A stretch of DNA of 50,832 bases from assembly GCA_903827975.1 (NCBI GenBank), contig CAIKKG010000014.1:1-50832 (forward strand), written 5' to 3'. Numbering within the stretch: position 1 is the stretch's first letter; each line of letters starts with the position of its first letter. The notes under the pieces were generated by a model. That model saw nothing but the letters and a program-made list of their open reading frames with translations, had not been told where the DNA came from and searched no databases. The stretch comes from an uncultured bacterium (lineage in GTDB: Bacteria; Patescibacteriota; Minisyncoccia; UBA6257; GWB1-50-10). A program made the translations under genes and the position numbers. Positions 1 through 35,421 of this stretch are shown one piece after another.

Positions 1-18
1 AATACATAAACGGATAAG

Positions 19-58
19 CGTAAAAATCACGTCGAAATTAGTAGGTTTCGACGCTGAT
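19..58 (-). repeat. 40-nt hairpin-containing dispersed repeat, inverted copy (1 of 3)
   Basis: cgtaaaaatcacgtcgaaattagtaggtttcgacgctgat is the exact reverse complement of the 40-mers at 32708..32747 and 32829..32868. It has an internal 8-bp stem, cgtcgaaa/tttcgacg. Confidence 0.9.
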
Positions 59-132
59 AAATATATAGGAACATTTTCGTGAATGGTCCTTTTTGAAATA
101 ATAAAAATCAAAATGTATAATTATATTAATAG

Positions 133-9052: not shown

Positions 9053-9162
9053 GTTGAGCAGTGCTGGGTTCTTCGTTTGCAAGTAGGTATTAATTTATTT
9101 GGTTGTTCAGGAAGAATCCTATCTGGTTCCAATCCCGCCGCAAGGCGGGATTGGTTTTTTAT
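9053..9162 (+). ncRNA. candidate small RNA of about 105 nt, unknown family
   Basis: Lies between the promoter-like element and a strong terminator (aatcccgcc-gcaa-ggcgggatt plus T6). Internal 9-bp pairing gggttcttc/gaagaatcc. No ORF. Confidence 0.3.
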
Positions 9163-9200
9163 TACTCGGGTGATATACTAGGAATGAGCTGATTTTATTG

Positions 9201-32389: not shown

Positions 32390-32683
32390 CTAACTCAAAC
32401 AAAAATAAAAAGTAGTGATGATTATGATTTGGAAAAGGATTGCCATTAAAATCCTTTTGATGCCTGCGAACGATAAAATAGAAACGCGATAAAACGCGCT
32501 TGTTTTTGAAGGATTGAATAAATATACCGATAGCGATAAAAAATATATTATAGCTGACATTACCATAACCACCAGAAGATTCGGACCCTCCGGATCATTG
32601 AAAAAAAAGAACATTGTCCTAGAACACACGATGGACATTAGACCCAAGATTAGTAGTGAGGTCTTTTTTGATTTGAAGTACAT
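32390..32683 (-). CDS. hypothetical 3-TM membrane protein (97 aa)
   Basis: Hydrophobic profile. Competes with the overlapping plus-strand ORF 32514..32849, which runs into the hairpin repeats and is judged spurious. Confidence 0.45.
   Translation of the reverse strand: MYFKSKKTSLLILGLMSIVCSRTMFFFFNDPEGPNLLVVMVMSAIIYFLSLSVYLFNPSKTSAFYRVSILSFAGIKRILMAILFQIIIITTFYFCLS
32477..32494 (+). repeat. 18-bp direct repeat, left copy (aatagaaacgcgataaaa)
   Basis: Exact match to 33460..33477. Lies inside the 97-aa ORF. Confidence 0.85.
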
Positions 32684-32707
32684 ATCTAAAATTATATCGG
32701 AAAATTT

Positions 32708-32747
32708 ATCAGCGTCGAAACCTACTAATTTCGACGTGATTTTTACG
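32708..32747 (+). repeat. 40-nt hairpin repeat (2 of 3)
   Basis: atcagcgtcgaaacctactaatttcgacgtgatttttacg: an 8-bp stem plus a T-rich tail. Confidence 0.9.
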
Positions 32748-32828
32748 TATACTTATTTACTTCTTGTGTCCCTAACTGGACATCCGCGAAGCGAATTCGA
32801 GCTTTTTACAAAGCCTAAAGCAATACTA

Positions 32829-32868
32829 ATCAGCGTCGAAACCTACTAATTTCGACGTGATTTTTACG
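32829..32868 (+). repeat. 40-nt hairpin repeat (3 of 3)
   Basis: Identical 40-mer 121 bp after the previous copy, 12 nt from the tRNA-Gln 3' end. Confidence 0.9.
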
Positions 32869-32880
32869 CTTAAAAATCAG

Positions 32881-32951
32881 CTGAGGGACTAGGAATCGGA
32901 CCTAGATTCACGGCTTCAAAGGCCGCTGTCCTACCATTAGACGATCCCTCA
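32881..32951 (-). tRNA. tRNA-Gln (anticodon UUG)
   Basis: Hand fold of the reverse complement: acceptor TGAGGGA/TCCCTCA (U1-A72), discriminator G73; D-arm GTCT-AATGGTA-GGAC; anticodon stem GCGGC/GCCGT with loop CTTTGAA; T-arm CTAGG-TCCGATT-CCTAG. Caveats are a C at position 55 and a 4-nt variable loop. Confidence 0.85.
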
Positions 32952-33200
32952 ATTTTGTAATCTTTCGATAATACTTAATTTCTCTTTTGCTCCTCCATAG
33001 CTTTTGAGAAATTTCTCACGCTGTCTCGCTTCCATTCTATATTGGAAAGATTCTGTATGTATTAACTCGAATGGTCTTCTGCTCTTCGTTGATCTTACGC
33101 GTCCTTTATTATGATATTCCAATCGCTTTGAAATATCACTCGTTAATCCAACGTAGTGTTTATTATCCTTAAGACTTTTGAGAATGTATACAAAATACAT
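32949..33200 (-). CDS. small GIY-YIG nuclease-domain protein (UPF0213/YhbQ-like)
   Basis: MYFVYILKS...HYVGLTSDISKRLEYHN...R..E carries the GIY-YIG signature. Its TGA stop is the first 3 nt of tRNA-Gln. Confidence 0.85.
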   Translation of the reverse strand: MYFVYILKSLKDNKHYVGLTSDISKRLEYHNKGRVRSTKSRRPFELIHTESFQYRMEARQREKFLKSYGGAKEKLSIIERLQN

Positions 33201-33206
33201 AATGCG

Positions 33207-33261
33207 GTCCTACCATTAGCCTGCCCGCGGACGGGCCTACCCGGCCAGGGACGATCCCTCA
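33207..33261 (-). pseudogene. orphan tRNA-Gln 5' fragment A (nt 1-24), interrupted by a 31-nt GC-rich palindrome
   Basis: gtcctaccattag + cctgcccgcggacgggcctacccggccaggg + acgatccctca. The flanking 13+11 nt are identical to 32928..32951 of the intact tRNA. Confidence 0.85.
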
Positions 33262-33385
33262 ATATACTTAGACTATCAGTAATCGTAGTTATATCTACGC
33301 ACCTATCTATCCACGGACTGCGACTCGCTTTGCTCGCTTGCACTGCTGTTTGTAATCAATCGAAGACTCTTGAACAAACAGGGAG

Positions 33386-33436
33386 CCTACCATTAGCCTG
33401 CCCGCAGACGGGTACCCGGCCAGGGACGATCCCGCA
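33386..33436 (-). pseudogene. orphan tRNA-like 5' fragment B, interrupted at the same position by a 29-nt GC-rich palindrome
   Basis: cctaccattag + cctgcccgcagacgggtacccggccaggg + acgatcccgca. Acceptor variant TGCGGGA. No matching 3' half downstream. Confidence 0.75.
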
Positions 33437-33459
33437 ATTGGTGAACTAGTATATTTAAC

Positions 33460-33477
33460 AATAGAAACGCGATAAAA
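33460..33477 (+). repeat. 18-bp direct repeat, right copy
   Basis: aatagaaacgcgataaaa is identical to 32477..32494. Confidence 0.85.
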
Positions 33478-34951: not shown

Positions 34952-35179
34952 ATGCCACACGAATCGAGCGACCCATTGCACGGAAAGACATTAGAATCCA
35001 TTCTTAATTTTTTAGTTGAGCGATATGGTTGGGGTGAGCTCGGAAATCGAATCAAGATTAAGTGCTTCATGAATGATCCGAGTATTAAATCGAGTCTTAC
35101 ATTTTTACGCAAAACTCCATGGGCGAGAGAAAAGGTTGAATTGTTATATCTAATTACAATTCAGCGCGAACAGGCATAA
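34952..35179 (+). CDS. VF530/DUF2132 family small DNA-binding protein
   Basis: [25 protein letters not shown]...[26 protein letters not shown] is characteristic of DUF2132. Confidence 0.75.
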
Positions 35180-35421
35180 TGTATTACGTTTATATTTTGA
35201 AATGTGCGGATGGGTCTTTATATGCGGGGAGTACGAATAATCTTGAGAAAAGACTGAAGCAACACAACGAAGCAAAGTCGGGGGCGCATTATACGAAAAT
35301 CAGACGACCCGTTGAGCTGGTCTATAAAGAAGAGTGTGCCACGTATTCACTAGCCCGCACACGTGAGGCAGAGATTAAACGCCTTTCGAGAGAGAAGAAG
35401 TTAGGGTTGATTGAGAAATAA
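35179..35421 (+). CDS. small GIY-YIG nuclease-domain protein (second paralog)
   Basis: [28 protein letters not shown]...R..E. The start overlaps the VF530 stop (TAATG). Confidence 0.85.
   Translation: MYYVYILKCADGSLYAGSTNNLEKRLKQHNEAKSGAHYTKIRRPVELVYKEECATYSLARTREAEIKRLSREKKLGLIEK

Follow-up and report, generated by a model that had tools for sequence, protein, structure and literature searches.

A small predicted nuclease gene was found between an intact tRNA-Gln gene and its presumed promoter, with its upstream end marked by a GC-rich palindrome that splits a redundant 5' copy of the tRNA, and the same arrangement was found at tRNA genes in many uncultured bacteria. Literature searches, including searches with the palindrome strings themselves, found no description of it. 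The analysis started from two palindromes in a 50.8-kb window (the whole stretch of DNA that was analysed, 50,832 nt), where a first-pass annotation had reported 29-31-nt GC-rich inserts at the identical D-arm position of two tRNA 5' fragments, with an uninterrupted junction in a nearby intact tRNA. That observation was confirmed, with coordinates and sequences exact. The features of the locus, all read on the minus strand except the last, are as follows, where INS denotes the palindromic insert and L numbers denote the retrieved related loci.

32880-32951, minus strand: intact tRNA-Gln(UUG), 72 nt, no encoded CCA, the functional copy, with an uninterrupted junction between nucleotides 11 and 12 (ARAGORN; Rfam RF00005, 60.9 bits).
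32949-33200, minus strand: 83-aa stand-alone GIY-YIG nuclease ORF (UPF0213/Slx1-like), whose TGA stop codon is tRNA nucleotides 1-3.
33201-33206, minus strand: 6-nt linker CGCATT between the D-arm remnant of fragment A (..AGGAC) and the ATG; in relatives this distance is 0-15 nt.
33207-33219, minus strand: fragment A, tRNA-Gln nucleotides 12-24 (CTAATGGTAGGAC), through the 3' strand of the D stem.
33220-33250, minus strand: INS A, a 31-nt imperfect palindrome (26/31 G+C) reading CCCTGGCCGGGTAGG + CCCGTCCGCGGGCAGG, a tandem of two about 15-nt units of the family core CCCTGGCCGGGCAGG; identical in L001-L003.
33251-33263, minus strand: fragment A, AT + tRNA-Gln nucleotides 1-11 (TGAGGGATCGT), with an acceptor strand identical to that of the local tRNA.
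33264-33385, minus strand: 122-nt spacer between fragments B and A, homologous to the spacer upstream of the genome's tRNA-Gln(CUG).
33386-33396, minus strand: fragment B, tRNA-Gln nucleotides 12-22 (CTAATGGTAGG).
33397-33425, minus strand: INS B, 29 nt, a decayed copy (GG deletion, C>T) of the 31-nt form seen in L002 and in L130, the locus of tRNA-Gln(CUG).
33426-33438, minus strand: fragment B, AT + nucleotides 1-11 (TGCGGGATCGT), with the acceptor strand of tRNA-Gln(CUG), not of the adjacent tRNA-Gln(UUG).
32701-32868, no strand assigned: two 47-nt hairpin repeats (32701-32747 and 32822-32868) downstream of the tRNA, reading as intrinsic terminators on the plus strand; the same pair follows tRNA-Gln(CUG) in L130, and a third copy lies at window 15-64.

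Both inserts lie between ...GATCGT and CTAATGG..., that is between linear nucleotides 11 and 12 of tRNA-Gln. Chance was excluded, since the 31-mer is expected 0 times in shuffles, CCTACCATTAG occurs 3 times against 0.45 expected, and the same insert recurs at the same position in 63 tRNA-context sites from metagenomes and in about 25 genome loci. An assembly artefact is unlikely, since fragment A, the ORF and the tRNA are identical in three other independently assembled contigs whose DNA could be read (L001-L003). Predicted hairpin energies of INS A and B and their flanks (-12 to -14 kcal/mol) were no better than those of shuffles of the same composition (z about 0), and the evidence for a palindrome is therefore its symmetry and conservation, not its thermodynamics. 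A terminator scan found only the hairpins at 32712 and 32833, and not INS.

The ORF, which the first-pass annotation had missed, begins 6 nt after fragment A and matches the GIY-YIG catalytic domain model (Pfam PF01541, 59 bits against a cut-off of 22.6, E 6e-16, residues 1-68), with Y5, Y16, G18, R26, H30 and E62 (numbered on the window protein) invariant in 37 homologues. The only PDB matches were the UPF0213 proteins 1ZG2 (E 9e-8) and 1YWL (E 9e-7). The protein failed the curated cut-off of the group I intron-type GIY-YIG homing endonucleases (I-TevI-like, TIGR01453; 23.3 bits against 56, matching only residues 2-40), and ends after the catalytic domain, with no C-terminal DNA-binding module.

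Related loci were retrieved with a tightened protein alignment, since the first was too diverse for this purpose. The order fragment nucleotides 1-11, palindrome, nucleotides 12 to about 25, ORF and intact tRNA was present in about 40 non-identical tRNA-Gln/Glu loci, mostly labelled Patescibacteria, with a palindrome core of CCCTGGCC..GGGCAGG that was always at 11/12. The same architecture, with INS at 11/12, appears in homologues of 52-75% identity, and INS occurs at 11/12 in dozens of genomes, including at tRNA-Gln genes with a different D-arm and at tRNA-Glu genes. Among 91 homologous ORFs, 78 had a same-strand tRNA within 400 nt, against a 4.4% background. All 44 of 44 ORFs followed by a tRNA had a duplicate of that tRNA (9-mer or longer) upstream, against 2 of 66 in the control, and 34 of the 44 also had a 14-mer of at least 80% G+C there. 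More distant relatives of the nuclease sit at other tRNA genes, with other GC hairpins in the redundant tRNA copy, and ORF clades follow tRNA identity; within the clade at issue, Gln(UUG), Gln(CUG) and Glu hosts are interleaved, and INS type tends to follow the ORF clade.

An ORF-independent scan of metagenomes gave the 63 tRNA-context sites, of which 30 had a full ORF, 5 a partial or cut ORF, and 23 kept the fragment and palindrome without a detectable ORF. Internally deleted ORFs are visible in L019, L088, L095/L126 and L112, and several ORF-less sites retain truncated ORF starts. A search of viral contigs for the INS junction pattern gave no match.

The interpretation given by the first-pass annotation was supported in part. 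It had proposed a site-specific miniature palindromic element, a nuclease or recombinase recognition hairpin, or a decoy inactivating displaced tRNA copies. The insert is indeed a recurrent, position-specific and conserved palindrome, which can double, nest within itself and appear at a second site in longer fragments (L109, L115), and the last option is close to the explanation preferred here; the outcome that had been set beforehand as refuting, a motif found nowhere else and a simple tandem duplication, was not obtained. The fragments are, however, not orphans as had been claimed, since fragment A is the 5' boundary of the ORF that abuts the intact tRNA, and fragment B is a copy of the ORF-less fragment upstream of the genome's tRNA-Gln(CUG).

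In the window and the related loci, the palindrome also does not behave as a free, dispersed miniature element. That INS is an independent palindromic element (MITE/REP/GC-cluster-like) with its own preference for the D-arm site, mobilised in trans and only incidentally or secondarily linked to the ORF, would fit its nesting inside itself (L100, L122, L147), its tandem doubling (window, L098, L134), its copying to a second site in longer fragments (L109), the 23 sites without an ORF, and a related perfect palindrome, CCTGCCTGCCGGCAGGCAGG, that occurs twice away from any detected GIY-YIG ORF (L051:1420, L081:2189). This reading is considered unlikely, since 13 of 13 copies of the core 15-mer in 545 kb of fetched loci lie within 400 nt of such an ORF, the 50.8-kb window holds only two copies, both at tRNA fragments, INS was never seen in a functional tRNA or elsewhere, INS type tends to follow the ORF clade, truncated ORF starts remain at several ORF-less sites, and no transposase or RAYT gene lies nearby. 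The CCGCGG site in long INS forms was considered as a restriction-type recognition site and rejected, because it is absent from the common 15-nt form.

A trivial origin, whether a chance insertion followed by tandem duplication, an assembly error, an integrase-type att duplication, or a tRNA intron (group I or bulge-helix-bulge) or split tRNA, is very unlikely. Fragments A and B are 177 nt apart and share the insert, but the architecture recurs in over 60 independent contigs, is identical in three other assemblies, and fragment B derives from the tRNA-Gln(CUG) locus. The unit contains only the 83-aa ORF and no integrase, and the duplication is of the 5' end, not the 3' end. The fragments stop at nucleotides 22-24, and are thus not interrupted full-length tRNAs, and an Rfam search at E up to 10 found only the intact tRNA.

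Comparison of fragments with tRNAs showed that they match the local tRNA (0.77 and 1.57 mismatches, against 3.2 and 3.4 for non-local tRNAs), with 38 of 56 identical over nucleotides 1-11, and that the duplication begins at tRNA nucleotide +1 to -3. Between near-identical strains, the module of fragment B (module B) is absent in L001. The ORF-less paralogous locus L130 differs from the window by exactly the 310-nt module, whereas a search for a strictly allelic empty site through the neighbouring 159-aa gene found only non-syntenic relatives. The spacer between fragments B and A is not detectably ORF-derived (DNA alignment, z about 2; tblastn with 116 family proteins, 17.7 bits against a shuffle mean of 16.7).

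That the nuclease is a domesticated host Slx1-like repair enzyme linked to highly transcribed tRNA genes, with fragments and palindromes as by-products of break repair, would fit its membership in the widely conserved UPF0213/Slx1-like family, previously predicted to act in repair (PMC1564403), the match of fragments to the local tRNA, and a second such ORF in the window (35179-35421) with no tRNA nearby. It is considered improbable, since INS is conserved across genomes where random repair scars would differ, ORF-loss relics, tandem modules and presence/absence among near-identical strains exist, ORF clades are specialised by tRNA type, and ORFs borrow tRNA nucleotides as their stop codons.

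The explanation preferred here, with moderate confidence, is that the two interrupted fragments are the upstream ends of modules left by a tRNA-gene-resident, homing-endonuclease-like selfish element whose only gene is the minimal GIY-YIG nuclease. What the sequences establish is the architecture: the order of upstream flank, AT + nucleotides 1-11, INS, nucleotides 12-24, 6 nt, ORF and intact tRNA-Gln; the overlap of the stop codon with tRNA nucleotides 1-3; the presence in two copies of a stretch from about nucleotide -3/+1 to about 25, of which the promoter-distal copy is intact and the promoter-proximal copy is split; the conservation of this module in many mostly Patescibacteria-labelled contigs; its ORF-truncated and ORF-less versions; and the related ORFs at other tRNA genes. 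Nuclease activity, site-specific cleavage, mobility by ORF-dependent gene conversion, expression and the role of the palindrome are inferred from sequence alone. In this view, the nuclease would cut or nick tRNA-Gln/Glu gene DNA in the conserved D-arm region, and repair from an occupied copy would insert the contiguous unit [INS, nt 12-25, ORF, nt 1-11] at 11/12 (equivalently, the unit would enter with a duplication of nucleotides -3 to 11), rebuilding a working tRNA co-transcribed behind the ORF from the tRNA promoter. INS would be the element's terminal palindrome at the junction with the displaced resident 5' end and, by splitting the D-stem sequence, would stop that copy from being a second nuclease target, a long recombination partner or a D-arm fold, protecting the ORF from excision. 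Fragment B and its spacer would be a second, ORF-less module, copied from, or sharing ancestry with, the one upstream of tRNA-Gln(CUG).

Several features fit this view poorly. The intact tRNA next to the ORF keeps the presumed target, which leaves self-immunity unexplained, an 83-aa catalytic domain has no evident DNA-binding module for a long target, no strictly allelic empty site was found, and the spacer after fragment B shows no detectable ORF remnant. The outer arms of INS are almost invariant across ORFs of only 50-75% identity, implying a sequence-specific function beyond mere disruption. Anti-recombination as the sole role of the hairpins was rejected, since in some Bacteroidota tRNA-Pro loci (for example L038) more than 50 nt of perfect repeat remains.

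That INS instead acts mainly at the RNA level or as an operator in the leader of the nuclease mRNA, as a stabilising or translation-tuning hairpin or as a non-cleavable target mimic bound for autorepression, as I-TevI does at its own operator, is possible but doubtful. INS sits about 13-28 nt upstream of the ATG in most Gln/Glu loci, the variants GGGCAGG>GGGTAGG (window unit 1, L015) keep a G-U pair on the sense strand, and deleting INS in silico slightly raised predicted RBS accessibility (0.43 against 0.48, p = 0.015, n = 40), which would fit damping of a toxic nuclease driven by a strong tRNA promoter. The effect is, however, small, hairpin energy is no better than shuffles, the GC hairpins of other clades lie downstream of the ORF in the redundant tRNA copy, and the hairpin centre is free to vary and expand, with no tetraloop preference. 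The converse idea, that INS frees the Shine-Dalgarno sequence by breaking the D stem, was rejected on the same deletion result and because the AGGAC-to-ATG spacing varies from 0 to 15 nt.

A wider reading, held only tentatively and judged less likely than not, is that the bacterial UPF0213/Slx1-like mini-nucleases include a phylum-spanning class of selfish elements that colonise tRNA genes, insert at a defined nucleotide, rebuild the tRNA end so that the host gene still works, use tRNA nucleotides as their stop codon and the tRNA promoter for expression, and seal the displaced piece with a self-propagating GC palindrome that would be the terminal recognition hairpin for the nuclease, a new mode of mobility between homing and transposition. 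Such elements would assign a biological role to a large family of minimal GIY-YIG proteins that has had structures but no known function, would add bacterial tRNA genes to the targets of endonuclease-driven selfish DNA, would explain many short, fragmented contigs and spurious tRNA-like hits in assemblies of uncultured bacteria, and would provide a natural example of how a selfish element keeps an unchangeable essential RNA gene intact while neutralising the redundant copy. If the nuclease recognises a short conserved tRNA-gene site or a defined hairpin, it is also a very small candidate tool enzyme. For annotation, INS-split tRNA fragments are a simple sequence marker for these elements and their relics.

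Among known systems, the bacterial UPF0213/prokaryotic Slx1-like stand-alone GIY-YIG proteins (BH0048, EF2693; E. coli YhbQ) belong to the same minimal single-domain family, for which repair has been predicted (PMC1564403), while the searched literature reports no tRNA-gene linkage, tRNA duplication or palindromes for them. REP elements with RAYT, and IS200/IS605 terminal hairpins, are imperfect GC-rich palindromes of 20-40 nt with a conserved mismatch, recognised as hairpins by a dedicated enzyme, but those systems use HUH Y1 transposases and are dispersed in tens to hundreds of copies in intergenic DNA, whereas INS is confined to ORF-associated tRNA fragments in the 545 kb of loci, and the enzyme here is a GIY-YIG nuclease. 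The optional GC clusters of yeast mitochondrial DNA and the double-hairpin elements of Allomyces mitochondrial DNA are short GC-rich palindromes in an AT-rich genome, optional between strains, inserted at specific sites including genes, and thought to spread by gene conversion, but they are organellar, dispersed in many copies, not known to be tied to a tRNA D-arm position or to a particular nuclease ORF, and have no known sequence relationship to INS. Phage T4 SegB, encoded by a free-standing GIY-YIG gene among tRNA genes, cleaves tRNA-gene DNA of a related genome and drives its own preferential inheritance (PMC2330249), but is a full-length homing endonuclease, and is not known to involve tRNA duplication, a palindrome or ORF-tRNA overlap. 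In the mobile endonuclease ORFs (mORFs) of fungal mitochondria (Allomyces atp6; Glomus atp6, atp9, cox2, nad3), a free-standing endonuclease ORF (GIY-YIG in atp9) sits inside or at the end of an essential gene, one terminal part of which is present twice, so that the copy joined to the rest of the gene keeps it functional and the other is displaced as a fragment, and in some cases the ORF runs in frame with the host gene (PMC3630166). The element proposed here likewise has its ORF flanked by two copies of a terminal gene segment, one completing the functional gene, but its host is a bacterial tRNA gene, the duplicated part is the 5' end (about 25 nt), both copies match the local gene rather than one being foreign, the displaced copy is split by a conserved GC palindrome, and the nuclease is a minimal 83-aa UPF0213/Slx1-like domain.

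To locate the two inserts relative to tRNA genes, the sequence was searched with ARAGORN and Rfam, and both placed one intact tRNA-Gln(UUG) gene on the minus strand. The features of the locus and of the DNA around it are as follows.

33220-33250, + strand coordinates, insert of fragment A (31 nt, 26/31 G+C)
33397-33425, + strand coordinates, insert of fragment B (29 nt)
32880-32951, minus strand, intact tRNA-Gln(UUG)
32949-33200, minus strand, 83-aa open reading frame (ORF)
32701-32747 and 32822-32868, two copies of a 47-nt hairpin repeat, with a further copy at 15-64
32477-32494 and 33460-33477, two copies of an exact 18-nt direct repeat, AATAGAAACGCGATAAAA
35179-35421, + strand, second stand-alone GIY-YIG ORF (80 aa)
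9055-9165, + strand, non-coding stretch upstream of the secA-like ORF, ending in a canonical terminator (CCCGCCGCAAGGCGGG followed by a T-run), which may be a small RNA gene or a leader

Read on the minus strand, fragment A consists of AT-TGAGGGATCGT, the insert CCCTGGCCGGGTAGGCCCGTCCGCGGGCAGG, and CTAATGGTAGGAC, and fragment B consists of AT-TGCGGGATCGT, the insert CCCTGGCCGGGTACCCGTCTGCGGGCAGG, and CTAATGGTAGG, corresponding in each case to tRNA nucleotides 1-11, an insert (INS), and then nucleotides 12-24 (A) or 12-22 (B). The inserts described in the first-pass annotation are real, and the motifs do not occur by chance. Since predicted hairpin energies were no better than those of shuffles of the same composition, the case for a palindrome rests on symmetry and conservation.

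Six nucleotides after fragment A begins the 83-aa ORF, which the first-pass annotation had missed, and its TGA stop is nucleotides 1-3 of the intact tRNA. The ORF encodes a stand-alone GIY-YIG catalytic domain (Pfam PF01541, E 6e-16), the nearest solved structures are the UPF0213 proteins BH0048 and EF2693, the score was below the cut-off of the group I intron endonuclease family, and the catalytic residues were invariant among 37 homologues. The order on the minus strand is flank, fragment B, 122-nt spacer, fragment A, ORF, tRNA-Gln, and then two 47-nt hairpin repeats. Names attached to homologous proteins and to the contigs compared point to a Patescibacteria (candidate phyla radiation) organism. 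The 18-nt direct repeat brackets the whole block of fragments, ORF, tRNA-Gln, hairpin repeats and about 200 further nt, and could be the duplicated target of a larger insertion. The second GIY-YIG ORF, 41% identical to the first, starts at the last base of the stop codon of the VF530-family gene and has no tRNA or tRNA fragment nearby.

For close relatives, the identical ORF was found in three other assemblies whose DNA was compared, and fragment A, the ORF and the tRNA were identical in all of them. One of these contigs, L001, lacks fragment B and its spacer, a 177-nt difference, whereas another, L002, has fragment B with a 31-nt insert, so that the window's 29-nt insert is a decayed version of that 31-nt form. 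L002 is otherwise near-identical to the window, but the second GIY-YIG ORF and the neighbouring DUF2779 gene are absent from it. A further contig, L130, overlaps window nucleotides 1-791 at 99% identity and carries, just left of the window start (L130 5048-5298), the genome's second tRNA-Gln gene (anticodon CUG, acceptor TGCGGGA), about 115 nt after which the window starts. This tRNA is preceded by an ORF-less fragment, 31-nt insert and spacer that are the paralogue of fragment B and its spacer, and is followed by the same two hairpin repeats (L130 5306-5355 and 5428-5477). Fragment B is therefore of the CUG type, and both tRNA-Gln genes of this genome bear the mark. Relative to L130, the window locus differs by one 310-nt module [AT + nt 1-11, INS, nt 12-24, CGCATT, ORF], placed immediately before the tRNA. 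The hairpin repeat (GTCGAAA..TTTCGAC with a T-run on one side) occurs in pairs about 121 nt apart downstream of both tRNA-Gln genes, and at the UUG locus (32701-32868) reads as an intrinsic terminator for transcription converging on the tRNA. Both copies of the 18-nt direct repeat are also present in L001 and L002, and none is present in L130.

Homologues of 52-75% identity were found to have the same layout at tRNA-Gln(UUG), tRNA-Gln(CUG) and tRNA-Glu genes with different neighbouring genes, comprising a local tRNA 5' fragment, an insert at 11/12, an ATG 0-15 nt after the D-arm remnant, and an intact tRNA starting between -14 and +15 of the stop codon. The insert core is CCCTGGCCGGGCAGG, an imperfect palindrome (CCTG-G-CC / GG-G-CAGG) with a conserved G-G mismatch, and the same insert is used where the D-arm differs (GTAGC / CAAGCGG in loci L022, L023 and L031). 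Among the loci sampled through the protein, 78 of 91 homologous ORFs had a same-strand tRNA within 400 nt, against a background of 4.4% of flanking DNA, and all 44 ORFs followed by a tRNA had a duplicate of that tRNA upstream of the ORF, against 2 of 66 in the control. The 15-mer occurred 13 times in 545 kb, always within 400 nt of such an ORF.

For a sample independent of the ORF, metagenome contigs were scanned for the insert with its two junctions, producing 69 sites, of which about 6 are chance hits in GC-rich DNA and 63 are in tRNA-Gln/Glu context. Of those 63, 30 are followed by a full ORF and then the tRNA about 280-360 nt downstream, 5 are partial or cut by a contig end, 3 lie close to a contig end, 2 are second INS sites that lie beyond the intact tRNA in the same locus (L110, L151), and 23 have no detectable ORF, with the intact tRNA only 48-250 nt away. 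Several of the 23 keep a truncated ORF start (L088, L095/L126, L112), and locus L019 has an internally deleted copy in tandem with a full one. This is the pattern expected of invasion, decay and loss, although, because the scan required intact junctions, it cannot say whether the insert is maintained after ORF loss.

Analysis of the inserts revealed 25 distinct forms, in which the outer arms are nearly invariant and the centre varies and expands (CCCTGGCCGCG...CCGCGGGCAGG). The window's form is a tandem of two units, as in L098 and L134, some inserts are nested inside another (L100, L122, L147), fragments that extend into the anticodon arm carry a second copy there (L109, L115), and one variant adds a C on the left arm and a G on the right arm (L039), which preserves the pairing. 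In L032, L039 and L047, upstream of the ORF, a different interrupter occurs in tRNA-Gln fragments, a double hairpin (CCCCGCC-N3-GCGGGG + TCCCGC-N4-GCGGGA) inserted in the D-loop between AATGG and TAGGAC, and in L039 it occurs together with an INS at 11/12. Insert type tends to follow the ORF tree, and Gln(UUG), Gln(CUG) and Glu hosts are interleaved in that clade, which argues that insert and ORF travel together and move between tRNA genes that share the D-arm sequence.

To examine the origin of the duplicated tRNA segment, fragments were compared with tRNAs of their own and of other loci, and matched their own locus's tRNA far better (0.77 against 3.2 mismatches over nucleotides 1-11, and 1.57 against 3.4 over nucleotides 12-25). 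The repeat usually starts between tRNA nucleotides +1 and -3 and ends near nucleotides 23-27. Sequence alone cannot distinguish insertion of a contiguous unit [INS, nt 12-25, ORF, nt 1-11] at 11/12 from entry of the same unit with a duplication of nucleotides -3 to 11. In both cases the insert sits exactly at the junction between resident DNA and element DNA, on the side of the non-functional copy.

More distant ORFs were found at tRNA-Pro, Asn, Cys, Gly, Ser, Met, Arg, Lys, Leu, Ile, Trp, Thr and Ala genes, in contigs labelled Patescibacteria, Bacteroidota, Margulisbacteria, Elusimicrobia and others, with ORF clades following tRNA identity. The redundant tRNA copy there carries other GC hairpins, with CCTGCCTGCCGGCAGGCAGG lying at 9/10 of tRNA-Asn and inside the D-arm of tRNA-Arg, and CCCCGCC-N3-4-GGCGGGG replacing the D-arm or T-arm of tRNA-Pro copies that lie downstream of the ORF. 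The first of these, a perfect 20-nt palindrome used as the interrupter in tRNA-Asn, tRNA-Arg and tRNA-Glu fragments in several phyla, also occurs away from any detected GIY-YIG ORF (L051:1420 and L081:2189), and may have a life of its own. Stop codons are often tRNA nucleotides themselves, for example TAG at U8-A9-G10. In L024, L026, L040, L042, L068 and L074, two GIY-YIG ORFs lie in tandem at one tRNA locus, each with its own interrupted tRNA fragment, consistent with repeated invasion or unequal recombination.

The analysis establishes the architecture, its conservation and its decay series, as well as the tie between insert and ORF, whereas the mechanism is inferred from sequence. In the inferred life cycle, which is homing-endonuclease-like, the nuclease would cut or nick the conserved D-arm DNA, the module would be copied in from an occupied locus, the tRNA would be rebuilt and co-transcribed behind the ORF from the tRNA promoter, and the junction palindrome would keep the displaced copy from being a second target, a recombination partner or a D-arm fold. 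A good promoter, read from the sequence, lies directly upstream of the fragment in L130, while a simple scan found none in the window. Several points weigh against this view, since the intact tRNA keeps the presumed target, the protein has no evident DNA-binding module, the strong conservation of the outer arms suggests recognition by a protein, possibly the nuclease itself, and some tRNA-Pro loci retain long perfect repeats. An RNA-level role for the insert is possible but not supported by much. In-silico removal of the insert slightly raised RBS accessibility.

The feature is real and recurrent, and the interpretation in the first-pass annotation was partly supported, in that a site-specific palindrome is right but is one part of a nuclease-encoding module at tRNA genes. 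The finding appears to be a new form of endonuclease-driven selfish DNA, and gives a lead on the function of UPF0213-type nucleases. Literature searches, including with the insert strings, found no description, although prior description cannot be excluded since most subscription papers fell outside the literature searched. The 2006 survey of the superfamily lists the prokaryotic Slx1-like proteins as minimal domains of unknown role, and mentions tRNA only in connection with a fusion to a TrmH-like tRNA methyltransferase, not a linkage to tRNA genes (PMC1564403). Among known systems, the nearest analogue is the mitochondrial mobile endonuclease ORF that carries a duplicated gene end (PMC3630166), and the nearest by target is T4 SegB (PMC2330249). 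The palindromes resemble mitochondrial GC clusters and REP-type hairpins in kind only.
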